A DNA stretch of 63,731 nucleotides, the filler included, from Aduncisulcus paluster (lineage: Eukaryota): the NCBI GenBank assembly GCA_024181965.1. It is 6 parts of 6 records of this genome, joined end to end, with 100 filler letters (N's around TTAATTAATTAA, not from the genome) between each part and the next. Parts side by side here need not be neighbours in the genome. Positions count along the whole stretch, not along the records: positions 20,109 to 40,124 come from BQXS01009957.1; 5 more parts are not named here. One strand, 5' to 3'. The notes below the pieces were generated by a model. The model was not told the origin of the DNA. It saw nothing but the letters and a program-made list of their open reading frames with translations, and ran no database searches. Position numbers and translations under genes: made by a program. Positions within the stretch are counted from its first letter, which is position 1; every line of letters begins with the position of its first letter. Below, piece after piece: positions 942 to 62,525 of the stretch.

Positions 942-2447
942 ATGACAGAAATAAGAGCTTTTTTAGAAATTGAAGTAGGTAAGGATTGGGAAGGTGGAGA
1001 AGCCGATTCTTCTCATTTTACTGATAAGGAGATATGTAAACAATATTTAGCTGGATTATGTATAAAAACATTCTATAACGAATGTGAAGCCGAACATAGT
1101 GATGGTCAAAGGAGTAGATTTCAGAAACATAAAGATAAATGGCTTTTTCCATATTACCATGAATTGTTGCATGAATTGAGTATAAGACTCGAGAAAAAGG
1201 AGAAAAAGATACGATCAGCCCAGAATTCTATAAAACGAGAGCGAAGAGCGGCATTCTTCCCGTATGAACTTCGAAAGACAACAGATTTATTAATATCTGC
1301 TGATAGGTTAGATAGGCAGGCTCAAATTCTGGAAATAGAAAGTGGAATGCATGCTTCTTTGCAAACACAATCGGGTATCGATGCAGCTATCGCCAATTCC
1401 ATGACCTCAATGTCATACCGTAGAAAAGCCGACATGACGAGAGGTGATTGTACAAGAATCGCACCCCAACAATATACTGATGGGGCAAAAGTTCCAAAAT
1501 ATGAACGGGATGACCTTTTGATGAGGTTTCCTAGACTTCCCAGAGCAGTTAATCAACAGATAATCATTTGTTCTGTGTGTGGTGGGAAAATATGTGCAGG
1601 TGACTGTACGGAGCGTATAGTTAACCATTTTAAAGGTAAAGCCCATTCACAATGGAGGACTATGAAAGATACATGGGATTTAATTAGTTCTGGTAAGAAA
1701 TCCTATTCAAAGCGACTTGAGGATGAAAAAGAGCTTCGTTTGCAACGGATTGACTTGCGAGAACAACGTCATGCTACTCGTCTTCAAAGAAAAGCTGTCA
1801 GAGATGAGCTTCGGTCTCAACTCCTTTCAGCACGCTCTTCTTCTCACTCTCCCCCCCAGGATCCTCCACAACCAATTGAAGCCTCCTCCGCCCATGTGAT
1901 TAGCAAAGAAGAAGAAGAAGAGGAGAGTGTTGTTAAAGATATTATTATTGAACCAAGTCCCGGAGATATTCATTCACATAATGATGATATTGAGGCTCCA
2001 ACTAAGAATGCCGGAACAACATTGAAGGATTTGGATGAAGAGGAGGAGAAGGATAGAAAAGAATTGTTGGAAGATAGAGAGGAGGAGATGAATGATAGAT
2101 TGGCGGAAGAATTGTACGGAGTATGGATGACTCATCGTTTCTCTGATATTGAAATGCAGGAAGTCAGGAAAGTGGAGCACGACCGAATGGAGCGCAAAAG
2201 AAGAGAGATTGAGGAAGAACGTGGGAAGAGAAGATGTGCTGATGGATGGATCAACCCAGATGTTTTGTGGGCGGATTCACGTGTGGAGAAACAGCTCCAG
2301 CATTTCCACAGAGGCTATAGTCATGATAGTATGTCCAGAAGAGGACATGGACGAGGTCCTCCGAGGCATTTAGGAAGAGATAGAAGACACCATGGCCATT
2401 CCTCCCATGACGAATACCAGAGAAGAGGGAGAGGAAGATGGGGATAA
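942..2447 (+). CDS. LUC7: LUC7-like U1 snRNP-associated protein
   Basis: First zinc finger ICKQYLAGLC...C...H, coiled coil, second finger CSVCG...HFKGKAH, charged Arg-rich tail. Confidence 0.85.
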   Translation: MTEIRAFLEIEVGKDWEGGEADSSHFTDKEICKQYLAGLCIKTFYNECEAEHSDGQRSRFQKHKDKWLFPYYHELLHELSIRLEKKEKKIRSAQNSIKRERRAAFFPYELRKTTDLLISADRLDRQAQILEIESGMHASLQTQSGIDAAIANSMTSMSYRRKADMTRGDCTRIAPQQYTDGAKVPKYERDDLLMRFPRLPRAVNQQIIICSVCGGKICAGDCTERIVNHFKGKAHSQWRTMKDTWDLISSGKKSYSKRLEDEKELRLQRIDLREQRHATRLQRKAVRDELRSQLLSARSSSHSPPQDPPQPIEASSAHVISKEEEEEESVVKDIIIEPSPGDIHSHNDDIEAPTKNAGTTLKDLDEEEEKDRKELLEDREEEMNDRLAEELYGVWMTHRFSDIEMQEVRKVEHDRMERKRREIEEERGKRRCADGWINPDVLWADSRVEKQLQHFHRGYSHDSMSRRGHGRGPPRHLGRDRRHHGHSSHDEYQRRGRGRWG

Positions 2448-11367: not shown

Positions 11368-11467
11368 NNNNNNNNNNNNNNNNNNNNNNNNNNNNNNNNN
11401 NNNNNNNNNNNTTAATTAATTAANNNNNNNNNNNNNNNNNNNNNNNNNNNNNNNNNNNNNNNNNNNN
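11368..11467. other. Artificial contig spacer
   Basis: 44 N + TTAATTAATTAA (stops in all six frames) + 44 N. Confidence 0.98.
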
Positions 11468-12250
11468 CCCGTAAGAATACATCGCATTGGAGAATACAGT
11501 ATACGATCGCATACGATTCCAATTCCCCGACCGTCCACCTGGACTGGACGTCAGACAACTTCTTGGAGATGAAACAGATTGGGTTCTCTTTCCCAGTTTT
11601 CTTTTCTTGCTGCATTAGAACTCCCCCAATCCCCACCTTTGAAGCATCTGAATACAGGATAGGGGTCTCGTTTTCATTGAATGGGGCTAATACTATTGTT
11701 TTGGAAAGTTGACTTTTGATCTCCTTGAATGCATTCTGGCATTCAGGGGTCCACTCGAATGGTATGTCCTTTTTCGTTAGAGCAGAAATAGGAGCCATTA
11801 GTCTGGCCAACAATGGAATCACATCTTTGAAATAATTGAATATACCGATCACCCTGGAGGCTTCTTTCCTCGAAGAAGGAGCCGGTAAACGTTGGATTCC
11901 TTCTAATCGTTTTGGATTGATATGCCTTCCTTGTTGTGTTATCATCCATCCAAGATATTCAACCTCTTGGGTGCCAATGTGACATTTTTCGGGATTTATC
12001 GTCAACTTCTTCCTTCTTAATCTTTTTAGGACCTCATGCAGTCTTTCTTTGAATTCTTCTATAGAATCCCCATAAACAACGATGTCATCGAGGTAGACAA
12101 GACAGCCATGAAACAACATGTCTGCGAAGATCCCAATCATGATTTTCTGGAAGTGAGCCGGTGCGTTCCGGAGGCCGAAAGGCATGACATTCCATTCATA
12201 GAGTGATTTTGACGTTGCAAATGCTGTGAAATGTTTGCATTCCTCTTTTC
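11468..12250 (-). mobile_element. Ty3/gypsy LTR retrotransposon RT-RNase H fragment
   Basis: TAF..., YEWNVMPFGLRNAPAHFQ, YLDD, EKC...EVEYLG, RNase H SDASKVGIGGVL...SKKL...ELESYAI. The RT N-terminus is missing and the 3' end is cut by the spacer. Confidence 0.93.
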
Positions 12251-12976
12251 CTTTGCTTTCTATTATGACTTCCATCATTTCTCATTTCTCTTTTTTCCGA
12301 CTATTTTTCCAATTCTTCCAAGATTTTCCTTGCAATCTCTTTGTTTTATATCCATATTTTCTCCTAATATTCCTTTTTCGCCTTGCTAATAGGGTTGATT
12401 TTGTTTATATGTAATTTCCTCTATATCTCCATTTATACGACATAATTTTAAGAAATAGTTCTAAAATCCTTTTCTAGCTTCCTTTTTTACCTTAGGACTT
12501 CCTTAATTGAGCTTATTTTCCTTTTCCTTTATAGTAAAACTAACTTCTGGAGAAGACCTCGAAAACGGCATTAGATTTGCTCTACGGCGAAGTCGGTTTT
12601 TTCGATCGTTTTTCTTAATAAAAATTAATTGCCAAATTCACTTTATACCTTCTAAAGGTGCTAAACCTTGAATCTTTTCTTATTTTCCTTAAATTCAAAG
12701 ATTATTTTTTTCTTTTAGATCGATAAAAACACATTTGTAATTTTTTCCTTAAAAATTTTATAAATTTTGTAAAAACCTTTATTCAAGTTAAAATATTCAT
12801 TCTAGGAGCTATTCCTTTCCTCCCATCTTATTTTCAACTTGCCTTTACCCAATTTTCCTTCTAAAAATCCAGATATTACGGAAATACCTTACTTAAGCTT
12901 CCTATTGCTCGGATATTGTTAATTTTTCCTTTATATAACCGCTACCGATTTAAATTATCTCCTTTAGTGAGATAAT

Positions 12977-14690
12977 TCATTGGATCATCTCACCAACCTT
13001 GATATTTGCCTGGCCTTTATCTAATTTACCTTTTAATGCCTTATTACTTTCTAGATACTTATCCAACGCCTCACAATCTTTCACTGTGGGGAAATATTCC
13101 CAGATATTGTTCTCTTGGCTGTAATTTTTCCACTTAACGAGGAATTTTAACGGTAATTTACCTCCATGGCGATGTTTTATAATCTTTTCCACAATGTACT
13201 CTTCCTCATCCTTCCCATTGATGACCATTTCGTCCTTTTCCGAAACAAATGGGTCTTCAATGTATTTGACCATTCGTCTTACTGTATAAGTTCCTCTTCG
13301 CCTCCTTTAACCGGACCAACTTTGTATTTGTTCTCTGTTATTTTTTCCTTCACAATAAATGGTCCATTCAGTGGTGCTTTCTCCTTTTTACCTTGCTTTG
13401 GCTTGGATAATAGTATTTTCTCACCTATTTCGAATTTTAAAGGTTCTATTGCCGACATTTCCCTTTTATCATCACTCATCATTATTTTATCTGTCACATC
13501 CTCTTTAGCAAGTCCTTTTTCCACCAAAACTTTTTGAACTTCCGTTGAATCCGTCTCGATCAGTTCTCCTTCGCGTAAGAACATGCCATAGAAGGGCTGT
13601 ACCCTCGTTATGGAATTAATCCTCTGATTTAGTGTCTTCATTGCCAAATCCGCCAGTTTTTCTAGATCTGGGTCATTTTCCATGTTCCAAATCCGTTGTA
13701 TCTTGCGAATTTCTCGATTAATTCGTTCTACACGGCCATTCGCTTCATGATCATACGGTAATGTTGTTTTCTGTTCAATTACATTTTCTTTTAACCACTC
13801 CTGCATTCGTCCTCCCGTGAATTGTTTTCCTCCATCTGAACGTAAGGTATATGGTTTCCCAAACATTGAGAACCATTTCCTTAATATAATTATTGTTTCA
13901 TCGACAGTAACCGATTTTAAAGGAGCAATTAAAGTAAATCTAGTGAAGTCATCCACCAATACGAGCAAGTACCGGAAATCTTTTTCATCTATATCGCACG
14001 GACCAATGATATCCACCGAAACGCTCAGCCATGTACCAAAAGCACGTAAAGTCCCGTGGCCGTGGGGTTTGGTGCTTTTTAATTTTTGACATTTCAAGCA
14101 TTGTCGGGTGACATCCTTGGCTTTTTCTTTTAAATTGTCGATCTTAATTTCCTTTCTCTTACAGTAATTTTCTATCATTCCGCTTCCAGCATGCCCAAGT
14201 CTTTCGTGAATGTCTCGTATCAATTTATCATCATCTTCCAGCTCGTTTTGTTTCTCCACTTCCATCAAGCATGTCTCCACCGTGTCCTGGGCCCCAACTC
14301 GTGACAGGAAGTCGGCGAAACCGTTGGATTTACCAGGGATGTGCCGGATTTCCATATCGTATGGTGCCAATTGCAGTTTCCATCTCATCAGTTTTGGGAC
14401 TTCTGACTTATACAAGTAAATCAAGTTTTTATGATCTGTTTCCACGATAAACTTCTTTCCCAACAGTAAATACCTGTTTTTAGTTATGGCATATACTACG
14501 GCAAAGCATTCCTGTTCTATTACCGACCAGTTAGCCTCAACTTTCGAAAACTTTTTGCTGAATAGTGCTACGAGTCCTTCTTTTTCTGATCCTATTCTTT
14601 TCTGCCAGATTCCGCCTCCTATTCCTTTCGTGGAGCCGTCGGTCCTTACAATAAACGTTGCTTCTCTGCAGGGGTGTTGTAAGGTGTAGT
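12977..14690 (-). mobile_element. Chromovirus-type Ty3/gypsy pol fragment: RNase H, integrase, chromodomain (one frameshift)
   Basis: The frame stays open upstream of 14463 (VRTDGSTKGIGG...SKKF...EQECFAVVYA...ETDHKNL). HHCC zinc motif (HERLGH...CLKC), DDE (SVD, RSDGG, VERIN) and GPF motif. Chromodomain EEYIVEKIIKHR...FLVKWKNY...WE lies in a shifted frame at 13273-12977. Confidence 0.93.
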
Positions 14691-20008: not shown

Positions 20009-20108
20009 NNNNNNNNNNNNNNNNNNNNNNNNNNNNNNNNNNNNNNNNNNNNTTAATTAATTAANNNNNNNNNNNNNNNNNNNNNNNNNNNNNNNNNNNN
20101 NNNNNNNN
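20009..20108. other. Artificial contig spacer
   Basis: N44-TTAATTAATTAA-N44. Confidence 0.98.
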
Positions 20109-24598: not shown

Positions 24599-25251
24599 TT
24601 ATTTTTCGGATTCTTCACTTTCTTGAATTTCACTTTTTGGAGAAGAAGGTGAGTCTTCAGAAATGAAAACGAGGGAATCGATGTATGTTTTACCACATTT
24701 TTTATCATTCCACATTCCAGTTCCCTCGATTTCAACAACGGTGACTTCATGGAGATCAATAGGAAGGAAAAGCCATTGAGCATTACATTTGAATTTTTTG
24801 AACTTGTATTTCTTGATCCTTTGCTCTCCACTGGATAGAGTAAAAGAAAATACAAGGAATTGAGGGCCATACCATTTGTTAATACAAATATAAGCACCCT
24901 TGAGATTAGAAGATGTAAATGGGAAAAATAAATGAGAAAATGACACACCATATCCGCCCCGAATCATTCTTTGTGCATGTAAACTCTGATCAAATTTATC
25001 AGATTCTTTGGACTCTGATGTGTCTTCGCCAGTGACATTCGAAACATCAGGTAAAACGACAGAAGAATCTGTTCGAGCAATTGGAATGACACTTTCATCG
25101 CCTTCAACTTTAAATATTGGTTTAACGGATTCAACCTAGGAAGAAAAATGACAATTTAAGTGAGAAAATCGAAGAATATTAAAAAAAAAGGGAAAATGAC
25201 AATAAAAACTAAAATACTTACCTTTTGTGAGCTACAACATCCAAGTCCCAT
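24599..25251 (-). CDS. Small, probably dually acylated protein with an unnamed beta-rich domain; exons 25251-25222 and 25135-24599
   Basis: An 86-nt intron at 25221-25136 (GTAAGT...CCTAG), phase 0, gives MGLGCCSSQK|VESVKPIFKVEGD...DQSLHAQRMIRG...SHLFFPF...KGAYICINK...WLFLPIDL...EIEGTGMW...IDSLVF. Confidence 0.8.
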
Positions 25252-27311: not shown

Positions 27312-27680
27312 GGGTTTATTGAGTTAGATTTGTTAGTCTGTTAAGTTTTTTATATTCATCTTCTATGTTCTTTCTATCTAAATCGTGTTATTCATTGAAT
27401 TAAAAGGTTAAANNNNNNNNNNNNNNNNNNNNGTGTTGATACTTGTGTTGTACTGTCTTCGCTTGAGGAAGAGCAGAGCTTCACCTGTGGTAGGAGGGGA
27501 ATATTCTCGTGTGCTGACAGATGCAATGACTGACATTGTTGGTGATCCAGATCTTGCAACAACAACTCTTCTTGAATAAGGGTTTATTGAGTTAGATTTG
27601 TTAGTCTGTTAAGTTTTTTATATTCATCTTCTATGTTCTTTCTATCTAAATCGTGTTATTCATTGAATTAAAAGGTTAAA
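27165..27680. other. Assembly artefact: 248-bp overlap duplicated across a 20-N gap
   Basis: 27165-27412 is repeated at 27433-27680. Confidence 0.92.
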
Positions 27681-30330: not shown

Positions 30331-30593
30331 GAGAAATGTCAAGGAAAGAAAGATAAATGTTTTGCAAAGCATTTTTTTTTTTCAAAAGAAAAAAATAAAT
30401 ACACCCCGCAAAATCTGGATGATTTTTAGATTTTTTTCAAATTTTATTTTCTTTTATTTCTTGATTAGAAGAAATTATTTGTAATGGAAAGAAGAAGAGG
30501 CAAAAAATCTTTAGGGAAGTTTTAGAGCTTTCCTGGAGGAAATACAGTTAAAATTGATATGTAACAATGCAAATAAATGTGCTTAAATAAGTC

Positions 30594-30749
30594 TGTCTCT
30601 CGCACGAATGCGTAAAGACATTAGCAGAATAGAGCAAGGTACAAGAGTATCCCTGTCTATATGGAGTTCATTCCCTGCCGCAGCATGGGACCGCTCCACA
30701 ATGAAGGGGCCTTCCAGATCACCCACTTCAAAATTCTGAAGGTAAGTTT
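30594..30749 (-). ncRNA. U1: U1 spliceosomal snRNA (divergent)
   Basis: 5' AAACUUACCU; helix H CAGAA/UUCUG; SL1 UGAAG-U-GGGU [GAUCUGGAAG] GCCC-CUUCA (U1-70K loop); SL2 UGUGGAG..UCCC..GGGA..CUCCAUA; SL3 UAGA-CAGG..CCUUG-C-UCUA; SL4 UGUCUUU-A-CGCA[UUCG]UGCG-AGAGACA. Confidence 0.9.
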
Positions 30750-31031
30750 CAGGAAAATAGATCTATATGAAGATAATAACCGAAAATCTAAAAATAGAGT
30801 AGGCGTATTTTATTGTTCTAATAAACGATTTGATTGCATCACAATCAATATTTGAACAAATATATTATTGAAATGTGAATTACATTGGATTTGACCTTGA
30901 CAGAACGAAGAAACAATTATCGCGAATTCGGGGAACATAATATCGAGAAAACGCAATGAATTGATTTTGTCTCTTAACAAGACAAATTTATCATCAAGGT
31001 TGTTTTCAATTCAAGCCTCAAAACAACATAT

Positions 31032-31804: not shown

Positions 31805-33775
31805 ATGACTCTGTTTTTGTATGGAATTGGCTCCAATACTTCTCAACATGAAATTGAAGAATTGGCCCGAAGATTTGGAATGGTAACTAGAGTTTCTAAA
31901 CCAGCTGGGAAGAATATGTTTGTTTTTATTGATTATGCCTCCACTGAAGAGGAAAGCGTCGCTCTGATGGGGTTTAAATCAATAATATTCAAAGGAAATC
32001 AGTTAAATGCTGAAAGAGCACGTGCTTCCAGTTATGCTCATACTCTTAGTCAGCCTTTTACCTCTGTTCCGATGGCGGCTCATTCATATTCCTATACTCC
32101 CGATACTTTCGGTTCTGGGAAGTTTGAGTCATTTCACCCAGGAAGATATCCCCCTTCACAGCATTATGATGGCCACGCTTTTGCAAGTGCCAGTGCCCCT
32201 TTCACTGTTGGCAAGAAAGATCTTTTCCCTCCTCTCAATCCCCAGCGAACCACTGACTTGTCAACATCAACAACTATCGCATCAACCTCTCTTGATTCAC
32301 TTACTTTCCCGCCGGTGCCGTCCACATCTGTTGAATTCTCCTCATCTGAGATCAATCCGGTCGCCATCGGTCCATCCTCACGCAGTCCAAAAGTAACCAT
32401 CATGAAGAGGCCAAAACCTCCCATTGAACAACAAAATCTCTCTGAAGAACCCCCTATTCACTATCAGCGAGGACCACAACATCGTTCACCCTCAATTGAC
32501 GATGGTATTCCTCGATCTGTAAGCCAACAACAAAATTCAAGTGTTTCCAGCATTACACTCCTTTCTTCTCAAGACCATATCTCTGCTATCGCCCCTCCGT
32601 CTCAAGCAATCTCGACTAGTGGGGACAGACCAGCTCCATCCAATGTCCAATCCACTCCCAACAACCCCCAGACTTCCAGACACCCCCAAACACAATCTTT
32701 ACCCGTTGTTCCTGTCCAACACGTCCAACCACCAATTATTGAATCTTCCCACGAATCTTCGGTACCAGATCCAAGTCACGAATACTCTCACCGGAGTTCA
32801 GACTCTCGAAGCGGTGGTATCCCTTCCCCGAATCCCAGTATTGGCAAGGATTCGCTGTCTGATCATGAATTCTCTCAGGATTCAAGCAATGGGTCAAAGT
32901 TGATCAAGGAAGGGGTGCCAGGAATGAGTTCTAGTAATTCCCGTCATCAAATCCCATTTAGCACTTTTCCTGGCTCCGACAAGCAACCTTTTGGAGGGTC
33001 TTTGGACAGAATTATCGATGGTTCCCGTCACTATCAGTCCTCGCGTCAGAAACCGGATGATCCTTGGTTCAGAGGAGGAGTATCTGGCGTTAGAGCTCCT
33101 GGCACGGCTGTCAGTGTTGACTTTGTCAATCGTGTACCGATTCATATCNNNNNNNNNNNNNNNNNNNNTTCCCGTCATCAAATCCCATTTAGCACTTTTC
33201 CTGGCTCCGACAAGCAACCTTTTGGAGGGTCTTTGGACAGAATTATCGATGGTTCCCGTCACTATCAGTCCTCGCGTCAGAAACCGGATGATCCTTGGTT
33301 CAGAGGAGGAGTATCTGGCGTTAGAGCTCCTGGCACGGCTGTCAGTGTTGACTTTGTCAATCGTGTACCGATTCATATCCCCATTCCCAAACCCCAGAAG
33401 CCTGCCAGTGGACCTTGTATCTCCGAACAATCCAAATCCCAGCGCTCTCACTCGCACTCCTTTGATTCAAACTCATGCGATGAGACGGCTGGAGGGGGAC
33501 ATTCTGGCTGTCCCTTCCTTACTCCCACTGATCTTTTTGCTGCCATTCAAAAAAGCACTACTCTTGGTGTCGAAACACTTACTAAGCGAATATTCAAGGA
33601 TGTTCTTCCACTCTACGATGAGAAACAACGCCTTTCTAAGGAACTGGCTGTCAGCACAACGACAAATGAGTCATTGAAGGAGCGTCTTGAGGAGATTGAA
33701 CGAGAAAACGAACATCTCCGTGAAGAAGTAGCTCGTTTGAAGGAAAGACTTGATGAAGTCGACCAATGTCATTAA
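31805..33775 (+). CDS. RRM protein with a long low-complexity region and C-terminal coiled coil
   Basis: RNP2 LFLYGI and RNP1 MFVFIDY; C-terminal heptads. 32938-33148 is duplicated at 33169-33379 across a 20-N gap (artefact; true length about 579 aa). Confidence 0.82.
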   Translation: MTLFLYGIGSNTSQHEIEELARRFGMVTRVSKPAGKNMFVFIDYASTEEESVALMGFKSIIFKGNQLNAERARASSYAHTLSQPFTSVPMAAHSYSYTPDTFGSGKFESFHPGRYPPSQHYDGHAFASASAPFTVGKKDLFPPLNPQRTTDLSTSTTIASTSLDSLTFPPVPSTSVEFSSSEINPVAIGPSSRSPKVTIMKRPKPPIEQQNLSEEPPIHYQRGPQHRSPSIDDGIPRSVSQQQNSSVSSITLLSSQDHISAIAPPSQAISTSGDRPAPSNVQSTPNNPQTSRHPQTQSLPVVPVQHVQPPIIESSHESSVPDPSHEYSHRSSDSRSGGIPSPNPSIGKDSLSDHEFSQDSSNGSKLIKEGVPGMSSSNSRHQIPFSTFPGSDKQPFGGSLDRIIDGSRHYQSSRQKPDDPWFRGGVSGVRAPGTAVSVDFVNRVPIHIXXXXXXXSRHQIPFSTFPGSDKQPFGGSLDRIIDGSRHYQSSRQKPDDPWFRGGVSGVRAPGTAVSVDFVNRVPIHIPIPKPQKPASGPCISEQSKSQRSHSHSFDSNSCDETAGGGHSGCPFLTPTDLFAAIQKSTTLGVETLTKRIFKDVLPLYDEKQRLSKELAVSTTTNESLKERLEEIERENEHLREEVARLKERLDEVDQCH

Positions 33776-40124: not shown

Positions 40125-40224
40125 NNNNNNNNNNNNNNNNNNNNNNNNNNNNNNNNNNNNNNNNNNNNTTAATTAATTAANNNNNNNNNNNNNNNNNNNN
40201 NNNNNNNNNNNNNNNNNNNNNNNN
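40125..40224. other. Artificial contig spacer
   Basis: N44-TTAATTAATTAA-N44. Confidence 0.98.
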
Positions 40225-43200
40225 GAGGATCTTTCTTGTTTGCCCAACTGTTTCTCCTAAATCTGGGCGAAACCGAGGGATTTCCTCTTCTCTAAATTGC
40301 ATTGTTACTACTTTTTTCTTCATTTCCCTGTCATGTTTCCATATTTCAAGATCTCTGGTTGAACGACGCAAATCTTTTGACATGGGATTAATAGATGGCT
40401 TAAAAGGAATCTTCTCCCGTTGTTCTTTCTCAAGAGCCGTTGTAACCGATTTAAGTCTATTTTTAGCCTTTTTTTTATAAAATTCTTGCCTTTCTGAGAA
40501 TGATTTCCCATGTTTTGTTGCCAAAGATAGGGAAAATTGATTGATCGTTGGTTTTCCTGAATGTTCCTCCATTTCTTTGATTCCATCTTCAATCCGCTGC
40601 TTTTTGTCGAAACCGTGGGCAACCTGATTACCCCAAAAATTGTCCTGTCCTTCAACACTAGAAGGAGACAATAAGGCAGTCGACATGGGTGGAATAGGGG
40701 GGGTTCCATCCTCGTATTTAGTTGAAGCTGAGATACTTTCTTTCGTGTGAATCCCGTGTGGACCATGGAAAGGAGTAGAACAAGAAGAAGGGTAGTCACT
40801 TCCATCTCTTCGATCGCCATCGTGATCAGCTCCTAATTCAGAAAATAGACTTGAAATGCCAAACACACTCGCGGCTGCCACAGAGGTCCCACGACTCCCA
40901 GATATCGAATATGATTGGCGCTTGCGTTCTTTTTCTGGCTGTTCTTCTTTACATCGAGAGTGTCTCTCGTCTTCTCCTCCATTTCTCCTCCATAGAGAAG
41001 CTTCTTGAAGACGATTCTGATACTTATTTTTAGCACGGATTTCACTCTTGAGAACAAAAGGTTTGGGAAGCAAATCCTTCTTTCTTTGTTCTTGGTACTG
41101 TCTTTCGCGGATCTTCTTTCTTCCTTGTAAAATTGAACGATAAAACGAATAATGCTTCCGACGAACACAATGACCACGCCACACTCGTTGAATATTTTTG
41201 GCAGCAGTGTGAATAAGTTTAGATTGATCGGCAGCCTCTCTAAAAATAGGAATCAATGTCTTGAGGAACTTTGCAACACAAGAACTTCGCCATACACGTT
41301 GAATAAGCTGGGAAGCTTCATTTCTATTTTTAGATTCCTGAGAAAGATATATTTCCACTGAGATACCAGATTTGTACAATGAATAAATATGTTCAATTTT
41401 CATGACAGCAACTTTACGAATCGCTATTGATTCCAAAATGGCCTTTTCGCTAAGGATACATTCCAGTTCCGGCATTCTCTGGTGGTTGACTGTTGATTCT
41501 ATTCTTAGGGGATTGTGAGAAGATGGAAATCTTTCCTTGCGATGAAACATATCAGAAGTTGATTCATGACTTTCTCTCTCTTTGAATACTGTCATTTCAT
41601 GTCCTGTTCTATGATTTTCAGTGAATTTTATGATTCTTTTATCGTTTATATGAATTCTATTGTATATTCTTTTTATAGAATGGAACCCAAGGGCTCTGAG
41701 AAGGTCTATTCCATCGTCCATATTGTATTTGTTAGGCAATCTTTCAAATCCAAATGACAAATGTGATGTTGAAATTGAACAACAAGAGTCATCTTTGCGT
41801 CCATGTGAATCTATTCTTAGGGGATTGTGAGAAGATGGAAATCTTTCCTTGCGATGAAACATATCAGAAGTTGATTCATGACTTTCTCTCTCTTTGAATA
41901 CTGTCATTTCATGTCCTGTTCTATGATTTTCAGTGAATTTTATGATTCTTTTATCGTTTATATGAATTCTATTGTATATTCTTTTTATAGAATGGAACCC
42001 AAGGGCTCTGAGAAGGTCTATTCCATCGTCCATATTGTATTTGTTAGGCAATCTTTCAAATCCAAATGACAAATGTGATGTTGAAATTGAACAACAAGAG
42101 TCATCTTTGCGTCCATGTGAATCTATTCTTTTTTCAATATGTTCATCGAGTGAGTCGCTATCACTCACACAGGCACAAGATGAATTAGAGTGTAGATCAG
42201 AGAATATTTTTGAGGGATATGGTTCATCAACATGCCAAATACAAAGATTTTCAAACGAATCACCACCATCAAACTCTTCTTCTGCTTTGATTTCATCTGT
42301 TTTCCCACCAATCATCAAATTTCCAGGAAATTCTTCACCTTTCTGTTTGTTTCCTTCCCTCTTCTTCTTCTCATCTTTCGTCCTTTCATCATTATCATCA
42401 TATTTTGAGTTTGCCGGAATAGATCCACTTCCAACAACATGAGATGACTTTTCAGTTCTTTTCCTCGACATTGTTGCATTCCTTCGATGATTCAAGTAAG
42501 CTCGACTCACTCGATCAACACAGCCACATACATCACCAATAATATCAGTGGTAGAGTCAAACAATAAACTCGGAGAGAAGGCAAGGAGATTCCAAATGGA
42601 TGATATGGCAGGGAGGAAAGAGGGAATAGAGGGAGCGGAGATAATAATATCTTTAAATACATCAAGGATTGGTCCATCATTATCTCGACGTGACAAATGT
42701 CCCATTGCTTTGTCATCCTTCCTTGAGTGTGCCGCCCACCCACTCAAATAATTGACTCTGACACCTTGTCCACCATTTACAACTTTCTCAGTTCCAATAA
42801 TAGCACATTGCTGGTGAGAAAGTGTTCGTTTATCGAGTGGATGAGATTGAAAGAAGAGTTGAATCGATTCTAGATCAGAGAGGATTCCCGAAGAAATTAA
42901 GTCTGCAAAAGCACCATGCTGAATCGAGTGTGTCTGTCTGAGTAAAGCTTCTGAAATCAAAGAGAGCGAGACATCAGACCACGAGGTTCCTTGAGTCACA
43001 ATTCCTGGAGAAAGAGTCAAAGAAAGAATAGAACAATCAATATCACAAAGAGGAACTTTAGGAGTATCCTTACATTCAATGCCTGAAGATAAGGAGGAAG
43101 GAGAAGGAGAAGAATGAGAAGGACTGACACCATCAACCGTCTGTATTTGTGAGCTCAAACCAGAGTCAGAATCAGAGTCAATAATTCCAAATAATTCATT

Positions 43201-44607
43201 GAATCTCGAATTAACACAATATACTGTCTTTTTATAGGCTACAATGCATAACTCTCCAGCCAGAATACACACTCCTTCTAACCACATGGTTGTATCTCTT
43301 GAATATTCTTGACTTGAATATCCTTGACTTGAAAATCCTTGACTTGAATGTTGACCCCGCTCAGGTTTATCCCCAGATACAAAGCAGAGAGATGCAGGCA
43401 AAGTACACGACAATGACTGGGATTCTACAGTAGGGGCAGAAGAAGAGGAAACAGGAGCAGAGAGATGGGCAGTGGACGCTGCTCGTGTGTGTGAAAGACC
43501 TTCACAGAGGGACAACGAGAGAGAGTTCAGGGGAAGATGAGCAAAAGAAGCAATATGAAACAGAAGGGAAGAGCATGTTTCTGTAAATTCACGATCTATG
43601 CTGAATGGAAAAGAAGAAGAAGAAGAAGAAGAATCGCTAGAGTCTGCTCTTCTTCGAGAAACAAACCGAATTAACTCCCCACATAACATTGAGGATATAT
43701 ATAATCTAAAAATAGAACAAACATCAGATTTCTTGAGTCCCAAATGGGGGCAAGATACTACTCTCTCAATTTTCTTCCATATTCCGACAGATTGTTGAGA
43801 AATATAATCCTTTTTACCTGCAAATGTTCCGGAAAACCATGCAATATCGTTACATGTGACAGAATGGGAGTGGGATGTGTGTAATGAGAGTTTGTCAGAA
43901 GAAGACATATAAAATTTCTGATAAGGGGCAGATTTAGACTTTGTTGAATCAGCTTTTGGAAGACACAGCGAATATATAGGAATTGAAGAGGAAGAAGAAA
44001 CGAACGGAACCGTTCGGATAGGAACTTTCTTTTTGGGACCTATTGGAGGCTGTAAAATAAAGTTTTGGACGGTATTAGAGGCTCCACAAAGTCCAAGGAA
44101 CGCAGTTAATCCCCATAATGGTGTCTTTTGATCATGTGTCAATACGACATATTCTTGAGGCGCTGGACGAGCTAATAAATCACCAAAAAATTTTAAATGC
44201 CTAATTGTATGTGTTTTTTTGTCGAAATAAACATTTAATGTTAATACTCCTGCTTGTCTACCATCATAATATGAACCAAGTAATCGTAGTAATGAAAGGG
44301 CCGCAAAAATAGCCTTTTTCTTCAATAAATAATCACTTTCTTTTTGAGAATATGTTCTTTTGATGGGTTTATCAGTACTATTATGAGTAGGGGATTGATG
44401 AGAGAAATTATTATGCGAGATGAGATCGACAAAAGTAGATTCAAATGTTTTCTCAATATTCTTATTGGCGTATCCATTAAAACAAATTGCAACGTCTTTT
44501 CCACGTTTTGCCCTCGATATAGCCTCAAGAATGACAGCATTATTTAATTCTCCAAATATGATTGGAGTGAGTGCACAATATTCTTTTAACGATTCATATT
44601 TTCCCAT
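40225..44607 (-). CDS. Large IQ-motif protein with a candidate highly degenerate myosin-like head; 3' truncated
   Basis: ORF of more than 1450 aa from ATG 44607. IQ motifs ASQLIQRVWRS and AAKNIQRVWRGHCVRR. Myosin-ordered remnant motifs in the N-terminal half and an FKPSINPMS tail motif. The ORF is certain; the myosin call is tentative. Confidence 0.6.
41498..42130. repeat. 312-bp in-frame tandem duplication (104 aa) inside the CDS
   Basis: 41498-41809 is repeated at 41810-42121. TCTATTCTT occurs at all three boundaries and there is no N gap. Confidence 0.92.
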
Positions 44608-49137: not shown

Positions 49138-49237
49138 NNNNNNNNNNNNNNNNNNNNNNNNNNNNNNNNNNNNNNNNNNNNTTAATTAATTAANNNNNNN
49201 NNNNNNNNNNNNNNNNNNNNNNNNNNNNNNNNNNNNN
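49138..49237. other. Artificial contig spacer
   Basis: N44-TTAATTAATTAA-N44. Confidence 0.98.
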
Positions 49238-49861: not shown

Positions 49862-51567
49862 ATGACCTGGGTTGATATTGCTAAACCCCTTGTTAAAATT
49901 TTCCCCGAAGTTGCTAAACCTATCGCTCCCACTGTTCCTCTTCGTGAAAGAGTTTTCTGGAGTATTGTTGCACTTCTCATATATTTGGTCGCCTCCCAGA
50001 TTCCCCTTTATGGTATTCGCCCCACTAATACTGATCTTTTTCCATATCTTCGTGTCATGTTCGCTAGTAATCGTGGAACTTTAATGGAGCTAGGTATTGG
50101 TCCTACTATGACCGCTGGACTTATCCTCCAATTCCTCACTTCTGCTGGTTTCTTCCGTTACAACGAAAATGACCCAACTGAACGTGCTGTCTACCAAGGT
50201 CTCCAAAAACTCTTCGGTATCGTTATGACCCTTGTTCAAGCTATGATTTACGTATTCTCTGGATCCTACGGACCTGTTGCTGACCTTGGTCTTTTCCATG
50301 CCCTCATTATCATCCTTCANNNNNNNNNNNNNNNNNNNNTGGAACTTTAATGGAGCTAGGTATTGGTCCTACTATGACCGCTGGACTTATCCTCCAATTC
50401 CTCACTTCTGCTGGTTTCTTCCGTTACAACGAAAATGCCCCAACTGAACGTGCTGTCTACCAAGGTCTCCAAAAACTCTTCGGTATCGTTATGACCCTTG
50501 TTCAAGCTATGATTTACGTATTCTCTGGATCCTACGGACCTGTTGCTGACCTTGGTCTTTTCCATGCCCTCATTATCATCCTTCAACTTGTTGCCGCTTC
50601 TGTTTTAGTGTCTCTTCTTGATGACATTTTCCAGAAAGGTTGGGGTATTGGTCAAGGACAATCTCTCTTCATCGCCACAAACACCTGTGAAGCCATCATT
50701 TCCCGTGCTTTCTCCTTCAAGTATGAGGATGGAACTGAGCGTGGTAGAGAATTCCACGGAGCCTTCATTGCTCTCTTCCATGGACTTTTCTTCAAGGACG
50801 ACAAACTCCTTGCTGTCCGTGAGGCCTTCTTGCGTAATCATCTTCCAAACATCCTGAATATTGTTGCTACTGTGATTATTTTCTTCACTGTTATCTTCGT
50901 CCAAGGTCTCCAATGTAAGATTGCTGTATCTCGTAAGAACATTAAGACTGCTCCTATTCCTTACCCAATCAAGCTTCTCTACACCTCAAACACTCCTGTG
51001 ATGCTCCAGAGTGCCCTTACCTCCAACTTCTTCATGATCTCCCAACTCGTCTTCAAGAAGGTTGGAACCAACATTATCACCCGTATTCTTGGAACATGGG
51101 ACCTTACCTCTGGAAAGCAGGGTGCCCCTGAGGGTGGTCTTGCCTTCTACATTTCCCCTCCCACCCATTTGATCCAACTCTTCACTGACGGCTCTGTTCC
51201 CATCTACAAGGTCATCATCAGGCTTGTTGGATACTCTGCCTTTACCATTGGTACTTGCGGTGCCTTCTCTTACTTGTGGATGAAACTTTCTCACATTACG
51301 ACCAAGGATGTCTACGCTAAACTCCAACACCAGCAATTGCACCTCAAGGGATACCGTGACGAAGCTGCCAAGAAATTCCTTAACCGTTACATCCCTACTT
51401 CTGCCGTTGTTGGTGGTCTTGTTGTTGGTGGTTTGACTGTCTTCTCTGAGCTTTTGGGTGCCGTTGGAAGTGGAACTGGTATTCTCCTTGCTGTAGGAAC
51501 TCTTTATACCCTCTATGAAGAGATCACAAAGCAACAAAAGGAAGATCAGGAGAAGAAATTCCACTAA
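49862..51567 (+). CDS. SEC61A: Sec61 alpha translocon subunit (one gene split by a gap-overlap artefact)
   Basis: SQIPLYGI, ASNRGTLMELGIGP, KGWGIG..SLFIATN.CE, YPIKLLYTSNTP, GSGTGILLAV. 50074-50319 is duplicated at 50340-50585 across 20 N. Confidence 0.96.
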
Positions 51568-56803: not shown

Positions 56804-56903
56804 NNNNNNNNNNNNNNNNNNNNNNNNNNNNNNNNNNNNNNNNNNNNTTAATTAATTAANNNNNNNNNNNNNNNNNNNNNNNNNNNNNNNNNNNNNNNNN
56901 NNN
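56804..56903. other. Artificial contig spacer
   Basis: N44-TTAATTAATTAA-N44. Confidence 0.98.
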
Positions 56904-61682: not shown

Positions 61683-62525
61683 ATGGAATATCAAACCGGT
61701 CTTCCTCCATCTGTCATTACTGAAAAGGGTGGTTGCTGTTCAAAAGGATGCAGCTGCCTTATTGATTTATTCGCTGGCCTCTTTTATTTAGTATTTTGTA
61801 TTATTATTGCGGGCTGTTTCCTTATTGCCGATGTCGTAATTTTATGGGATTCGGAGGCTAATAATGGGATGGTTCCTTACAATATGTACTCTATGGTTAT
61901 TANNNNNNNNNNNNNNNNNNNNGTCATTACTGAAAAGGGTGGTTGCTGTTCAAAAGGATGCAGCTGCCTTATTGATTTATTCGCTGGCCTCTTTTATTTA
62001 GTATTTTGTATTATTATTGCGGGCTGTTTCCTTATTGCCGATGTCGTAATTTTATGGGATTCGGAGGCTAATAATGGGATGGTTCCTTACAATATGTACT
62101 CTATGGTTATTACGGATATTTGCGTCAATTTTGTCACTCTTATTGCCGGTATTATTAATTGTTGTGGTTCTATCTGTTGCTGTAAAGGCGATGATAAGGA
62201 GAAACACGTTCTAACTCGCATGAAAATATCTTACACCATTGATATCATCAAAGTTTGCATTTACGCTTGGTTTATTTATCAACTTGTTGTCCTTATTGAG
62301 AACCAGGATTGGATTGAAAACGTGTTATCGAAGGATGATATCTACAAGTTCTGTGTCCTCCTTGGAGCCATGGCCATTGTCTTCATTGTGATATTCTTCG
62401 TTTCTCTCCCATTCAGACTCTGCTTCAACTGTTGTAATAAGGGCATTGCAAGGAATGCCTCCGATAAGACATACGTTCGAAGCCCTCTTCTCGCCCATGC
62501 TCAACCTGGTGTGTATGGAGTTTGA
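61683..62525 (+). CDS. Cys-rich multi-pass (about 4 TM) membrane protein
   Basis: Hydrophobic helices flanked by CC clusters. 61713-61902 is duplicated at 61923-62112 across 20 N (true length about 210 aa). Confidence 0.75.
   Translation: MEYQTGLPPSVITEKGGCCSKGCSCLIDLFAGLFYLVFCIIIAGCFLIADVVILWDSEANNGMVPYNMYSMVIXXXXXXXVITEKGGCCSKGCSCLIDLFAGLFYLVFCIIIAGCFLIADVVILWDSEANNGMVPYNMYSMVITDICVNFVTLIAGIINCCGSICCCKGDDKEKHVLTRMKISYTIDIIKVCIYAWFIYQLVVLIENQDWIENVLSKDDIYKFCVLLGAMAIVFIVIFFVSLPFRLCFNCCNKGIARNASDKTYVRSPLLAHAQPGVYGV

Follow-up and report, generated by a model that had tools for sequence, protein, structure and literature searches.

A divergent U1 snRNA gene in Aduncisulcus paluster and a ten-base gap at the Sm site of its assembled copy

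The U1 snRNA gene and its surroundings

The window analyzed here is a stretch of 63,731 nucleotides, spacers included, from the genome assembly of Aduncisulcus paluster (GCA_024181965.1). A U1 spliceosomal RNA gene, real but divergent, is encoded on the minus strand at 30594–30749, in the part taken from BQXS01009957.1 (20,109–40,124). The RNA is 156 nt long and runs from 30749 to 30594, so that any RNA position p equals 30750 minus the window coordinate. The elements of the gene are listed below together with the analyses used to place them; X1 and X2 are the two public data sets described in the next section.

30594–30749, minus strand: U1-like snRNA gene (MFE fold and alignment to Rfam RF00003)
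From 30749, minus strand: 5′ end with 11 unpaired nucleotides, AAACUUACCUU (MFE fold)
30740–30749, minus strand: single-stranded 5′ splice-site recognition sequence AAACUUACCU (unpaired in the MFE fold; model positions 1–10 with the top posterior probability)
30734–30738, minus strand: 5′ strand of the 5-bp helix H, CAGAA (MFE fold)
30702–30730, minus strand: SL1, with the loop GAUCUGGAAG at 30711–30720 (MFE fold and RF00003 alignment)
30660–30700, minus strand: SL2, with an apical UGCG loop and without AUUGCAC (fold and motif search; poor RF00003 alignment)
30630–30659, minus strand: SL3 (MFE fold)
30625–30629, minus strand: 3′ strand of helix H, UUCUG (MFE fold)
30619–30624, minus strand: linker CUAA (30621–30624) and the junction point of the ten additional bases at 30619/30620 (contigs of X1 and X2; motif test)
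30594–30620, minus strand: SL4, a 27-nt 3′ terminal hairpin with a UUCG loop (MFE fold; model positions 139–166 with high posterior probability)
30562–30593, minus strand: 3′ trailer of about 32 nt, exactly common to the other gene copy (contig alignment)

The 156-nt RNA was folded with a free energy of −55 kcal/mol (z = −3.26), and 1 of 200 shuffled sequences folds equally well. The MFE and centroid structures are identical, and in both of them helix H closes a four-way junction with SL1, SL2, and SL3. Support for this junction comes from thermodynamics only, the number of relatives available for covariation being 0 in a metagenome scan with an exact-match pattern (the 5′ end combined with the motif of the SL1 loop) that was unlikely to reach relatives. 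The 10-nt SL1 loop GAUCUGGAAG agrees with the Rfam consensus GAUCAaGAAG at 8 of 10 letters and by this measure resembles the U1-70K binding loop. The spacing of 4 nt (CUAA) between helix H and SL4 given in the preliminary description of this locus holds for the window letters. The consensus for an Sm site is RAU(3–6)GR, and this motif is absent between helix H and SL4 in the window form of the RNA. The only match in the window RNA is AAUUUUGA at RNA positions 15–22 (30728–30735, minus strand), which lies within helix H and the base of SL1 and is probably of no consequence. The 3′ trailer at 30562–30593 is a possible precursor tail or 3′-end signal.

The U1 family of Rfam (RF00003) was aligned to 30749–30593 over model positions 1–166 with a score of 22.3 bits and an E value of 4.4e-4, which holds for a small search of 171 bases with the laxest filters. 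The Rfam gathering score for this family is 69.5 bits. U1 was not reported in searches of the whole window at the gathering score, of the whole window at E ≤ 1, or of 751 bases at E ≤ 10. The posterior probabilities are high over the 5′ end, the SL1 loop, and SL4, and low over SL2 and SL3; the Sm-site columns of the model are forced onto CUCUAUUCUGCUAA in the window form. The gene is a nonmember by the criterion of Rfam and a divergent U1 by its anatomy. The motif ACTTACCT occurs twice in the window, a count equaled in 33 of 100 shuffles and therefore not rarer than chance, so that the case for U1 depends on the combination of elements. The identification as U1 with its elements in order, as first proposed from the sequence, is supported by a fold that contains all of the named elements and by the end-to-end alignment with RF00003.

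The low score, the three wider searches that missed the gene, the unenriched ACTTACCT, and the empty metagenome scan (hence no covariation) would also suit a chance look-alike, or some other structured RNA or repeat that begins with ACUUACCU. This explanation is hardly credible given the canonical order of the elements with an intact 5′-end register, gene copies that become similar 2 nt before the predicted 5′ end, and a perfect Sm site at the canonical place in a longer form of the gene, a site that was used neither in the preliminary description nor in the Rfam match. A protein of the LUC7 N-terminus family is also encoded in the window at 942–2447 (plus strand, E = 3.5e-20), on another contig; LUC7 is a U1-associated protein family, and the presence of a homologue also speaks against a look-alike. 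Independent support for the U1 identity comes from the read-derived contigs described in the next section. The U2, U4, U5, and U6 snRNAs were not found in the Rfam search of the window at E ≤ 1. A match to DUF805b, a bacterial cis-regulatory family, at 30770–30805 (plus strand, 23.6 bits where the gathering score is 35.6) was rejected as chance.

The likeness to canonical U1 (RF00003) covers the 5′ ACUUACCU, the helix H four-way junction, the SL1 loop GAUCNNGAAG, and the 3′ hairpin with its UUCG loop. The differences are an A rather than a U at position 2, SL2 and SL3 sequences that barely align, and the lack of an AUUGCAC loop. AUUGCAC is missing from the window form and the longer form alike, and on this point a motif search bears out the preliminary description. 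The noncanonical SL2 loop is real and has precedents in Giardia, yeast, and Trichomonas; in the available text of PMC3510501 the SL2 loops are given as CGCAUAC for Giardia, CACAUAC for S. cerevisiae, and UGCAUAU for T. vaginalis against a consensus of UGCACUC. The apex of SL2 here would read AUGCUGCGGCA if the top 3 pairs were open, perhaps a weak partial match at most. The same text serves as an example of the divergent U1 snRNAs known from intron-poor protists and yeasts, and the Giardia lamblia candidate it describes shares with the present RNA a cloverleaf and a nonconsensus SL2 loop. As far as that text goes, a clear homologue of U1A or U1-70K is not reported for Giardia, and its U1 is without SL IV and an evident U1-70K site, whereas the RNA described here keeps both (PMC3510501). 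The host is a compact, intron-poor, deep-branching eukaryote, and it is called deep-branching because its best non-self GlnRS match is only 45–46% identical.

A candidate spliceosomal intron of 86 nt is found on the same contig as the U1 gene (25221 to 25136, minus strand). It begins with GUAAGUAU and contains a pyrimidine tract and a terminal AG. The upstream exon (25251 to 25222, 30 nt) encodes MGLGCCSSQK, which we take to resemble an N-terminal acylation signal, and the intron opens exactly onto a frame of 178 codons (25135 to 24602) for which no clear Pfam family was found. The 5′ splice site, AAG/GUAAGUAU, could plausibly form 9 consecutive pairs with U1 positions 3–11, by our count. The second ACTTACCT of the window, at 25216, was considered as a second U1 and rejected, being the complement of this candidate splice site. 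The sequence GGTAAGT has 4 matches in the window, and 55 of 100 shuffles equal that number, so it is not enriched.

Several properties of the window bear on how its other features are read. Six separate contigs are joined by spacers at 11368–11467, 20009–20108, 40125–40224, 49138–49237, and 56804–56903; the form N44-TTAATTAATTAA-N44 was read at one of these and is taken for the other four from identical N-run lengths. Open reading frames that span spacers are artifacts, for example the end of 40177–44607. The gaps of twenty N at 27413–27432, 33149–33168, 50320–50339, and 61903–61922 all have 100% duplicated flanks (4 of 4), and the duplications amount to 248 and 211 nt, respectively, at the two gaps of the U1 contig. 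These duplicated flanks are unmerged contig overlaps, and the assembly is a draft. The duplications inflate open reading frames such as 31805–33775 and split a Sec61/SecY gene at 49862–51567. LTR-retrotransposon-type pol pieces (RVT_1, RNase H-like domains, and an integrase core) lie beside a contig joint at 11412–14388 (minus strand). In the reading frame adjoining the U1 gene, the first segment is a weak RRM-like domain at 31805–32200 (plus strand; PF00076, E = 0.0021, 18.3 bits with a cutoff of 20.7), and its remainder is of low complexity. The reading frame at 40225–44607 (minus strand) contains a repeat of about 110 amino acids (RIDSHGRKDD...HNPLRI, twice in tandem) with no N between the copies, which is either a real tandem duplication or an assembly duplication.

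Ten additional bases in read-derived contigs

A search of public runs found the sequence in two of them, X1 and X2, which derive from one sample and hence are not independent. Of the sampled words, 0.90 are present in X1, which is probably a DNA run, and 0.34 in X2, for which the label as RNA is a guess. The contigs of both were compared with positions 30380–30900 of the window. The window flanks are matched by records 1 and 8 with 0 other letters, so the sample is the same strain or one nearly identical to it. The contigs of X2 give no cover at 30380–30548 and 30752–30804, and these two stretches are uninterpretable for that set.

Record 5 of X1 (30592–30721) and record 9 of X2 (30549–30751) both carry 10 additional bases behind plus-strand position 30619 and have no further difference from the window in the gene core. 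In the RNA sense the 10 bases are UUUUUGAAAU, bounded by a 3-nt direct repeat, and their placement at 30619/30620 is ambiguous within this 3-nt microhomology. In the longer form, CUAA/U becomes a linker of about 15 nt that contains AAUUUUUUGA exactly where the window has CUAA. A motif test matched RAU(3–6)GR at RNA position 128 of the longer form. By its letters, AAUUUUUUGA is a textbook Sm site in the position expected of one, and with it the longer form resembles canonical U1 (RF00003) in having an Sm site in the linker from helix H to SL4, which the window copy lacks.

The longer form was folded with and without a constraint. A bound Sm ring would keep RNA positions 127–140 single-stranded, and on this basis these positions were held unpaired; the canonical junction and SL4 were then obtained at −54.6 kcal/mol. 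The unconstrained MFE is −55.9 kcal/mol; in that fold part of the U tract forms an alternative helix H by pairing with the 5′ strand of the canonical one, and the mean unpaired probability is 0.49. The pairing of part of the U tract in the unconstrained fold means that thermodynamics alone cannot decide the accessibility of the Sm site.

The gene is also present at one other locus at least, as judged from unrelated flanks at the loose ends 30549 and 30751. The flank of the other locus (record 2) has a depth of 2612.8 versus 1185.5 and 1266.6 for the two window flanks, a ratio of 2.2. The U1 snRNA genes would number about three, the window locus being one member of this small family. From 2 nt before the predicted 5′ end to about 32 nt past SL4, the loci are similar. 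Record 4 (30562–30621) has a depth close to the sum of both flanks, and record 2 aligns as far as 30549 with 4 other letters. From the start and the depth of record 4, the boundary of copy similarity would lie near 30562, with a fading stretch at 30561–30549 that would hold the 4 mismatches. Within the gene, the window copy is letter-for-letter identical to the other copies except for the 10 nt (records 4–6, 0 other letters). The 30 nt upstream of the gene (30752–30781, minus strand) are unrelated between the copies apart from a few bases, UUUCC..UGAAAC, beside the start; CATATAGA lies about 20 nt upstream of the window copy, and none is present in the 30 nt of the other copy. The promoters of the U1 gene copies may differ.

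The short junction of the window appears in no contig of X1 or X2. The depth of X1 over 30596–30721 is fully explained by records 3–7, the short form is seen only in the window, and the sole X1 contig across 30632–30685 carries the 10 nt. A canonical gene copy, with other flanks and with the longer form in X1 and X2, is found elsewhere in the same sample. The preliminary description had itself named a canonical U1 elsewhere, or a deletion near 30620–30625, as a reason to give up its proposal, and as far as the contigs show this is what was found.

That proposal was of an Sm-independent or remodeled U1 snRNP, or of an atypical Sm site AAUGUCUUUA, or of a site relocated to AUUUAUUUG past SL4. 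It agrees with the window letters, which show no Sm motif in the linker from helix H to SL4, with the exact conservation in the other copy of the 32 nt past SL4, including AUUUAUUUG, and with an SL2 that is without AUUGCAC in every form seen. About two thirds of the copy depth, however, has a textbook Sm site in the textbook place, which makes a special mechanism unnecessary, and the window copy is otherwise identical to the others, with no sign of independent adaptation. The Sm-independent particle is not supported, since the same gene has a canonical Sm site in the same sample and also at another locus; nor are the atypical and relocated sites, given a canonical site at the canonical place in the longer form. 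Taken together these proposals are very improbable. The intact stems had been read as a sign of selection, and their identity to the other copies apart from 10 nt points instead to a recent event.

Origin of the ten-base difference

The word depth of the insertion-bearing contig was compared with two expectations. The mean observed for record 5 is 3329.1. A depth of 3302.6 is expected if 37 words found only in the longer form are missing from the window locus (about 1226), and a depth of 3715 (sd 82, from three estimates of the summed copy depth) is expected if all copies have the 10 nt. The deficit of record 5 is equivalent to 34.6 words at one-copy depth and places it about 10% below the summed copy depth. 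This arithmetic fits about one third of the copies being truly without the 10 nt. Local coverage noise, or the dropping of a single-base variant of another copy, could equally explain the deficit.

A recent slippage-type deletion specific to the window copy is the favored explanation, with a probability of roughly 0.55. It is favored because of the depth arithmetic and because direct repeats of 3 nt flank the missing 10 nt, a pattern typical of replication slippage. Contigs are described only as dropping rare variants, and it counts against the deletion that the contig builder must have dropped a branch carried by one copy in three. Its assignment to the window locus would follow from depth, the short junction being in no contig.

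The alternative is an error of assembly or consensus, in which the locus has a full Sm site, 10 nt of which disappeared during the assembly of a multicopy repeat of 200 nt. Such an error would account directly for the absence of the window junction from every X1 and X2 contig, and the 0.90 of sampled words found in X1 is compatible with only the junction words being missing. The gene is a repeat, the kind of sequence in which consensus errors concentrate, and the exactly duplicated flanks of 211–248 nt or more at 4 of 4 twenty-N gaps attest to errors of this assembly elsewhere. Against this, the depth of the insertion-bearing contig is near the value for a one-copy deletion, and the clean loss of 10 nt between 3-nt direct repeats resembles biological slippage. 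Typical assembler errors differ from a clean loss of this kind. The junction, moreover, is about 60 nt from unique flank, and single reads should have anchored it. An assembly error is a possible explanation that has to be taken seriously, though a doubtful one.

The further suggestion that the window gene is a variant or pseudogene copy is the one favored here. A canonical copy exists elsewhere, and the depth favors a lesion in this one; the short junction, which would establish the lesion directly, is in no contig. Under the deletion and under an assembly error alike, the organism has a canonical U1 with an Sm site. Lack of an Sm site does not characterize the U1 of the organism, and the 10-nt gap is peculiar to one copy or to the assembly.

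The predicted U1 particle and the fate of the short copy

To judge from the sequence of the longer form, the U1 snRNP of the organism most likely has the usual mode of assembly, on an Sm ring. The 5′ ACUUACCU of the family would pair with 5′ splice sites of the GUAAGU type, the SL1 loop is predicted to bind a protein of the U1-70K type, and the Sm ring would assemble on AAUUUUUUGA within the single strand of about 15 nt between helix H and SL4. The loss of 10 nt would remove the uridine tract from the Sm site of the window copy. The short transcript, if made, should be unable to take an Sm ring and for that reason is expected to be unstable, which would leave this copy as a nascent pseudogene. 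In human cells, instability, uridylation, and degradation are the fate of snRNAs that lack an Sm site, according to the available part of PMC7293007. The window copy would be the natural equivalent of those ΔSm RNAs, with the difference that the snRNAs treated in that part of the report are engineered and human.

A short copy that is transcribed and accumulates as a second U1 particle free of the Sm ring, in a lineage without a U1A-type SL2 loop, is most unlikely. Such a particle might be stabilized by AAUUUUGA (RNA 15–22) or by the shared 3′ trailer with AUUUAUUUG.

The situation proposed for the window copy is similar to that of the human vU1 genes, as they appear in the available text of PMC10870369, in that one copy of a multigene family departs from the functional consensus. 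It differs from them in that the sole lesion here is the 10-nt loss at the Sm site, the copy being otherwise identical.

Set against the read-derived contigs, the proposal that this U1 has no Sm site does not hold up, and it lends no support to an Sm-independent splicing machinery. The sequence at 30594–30749 can serve to annotate U1 in an orphan, intron-poor eukaryote, a gene that is missed at the thresholds of Rfam. If the deletion is real, the window copy would be a natural ΔSm allele beside intact copies.
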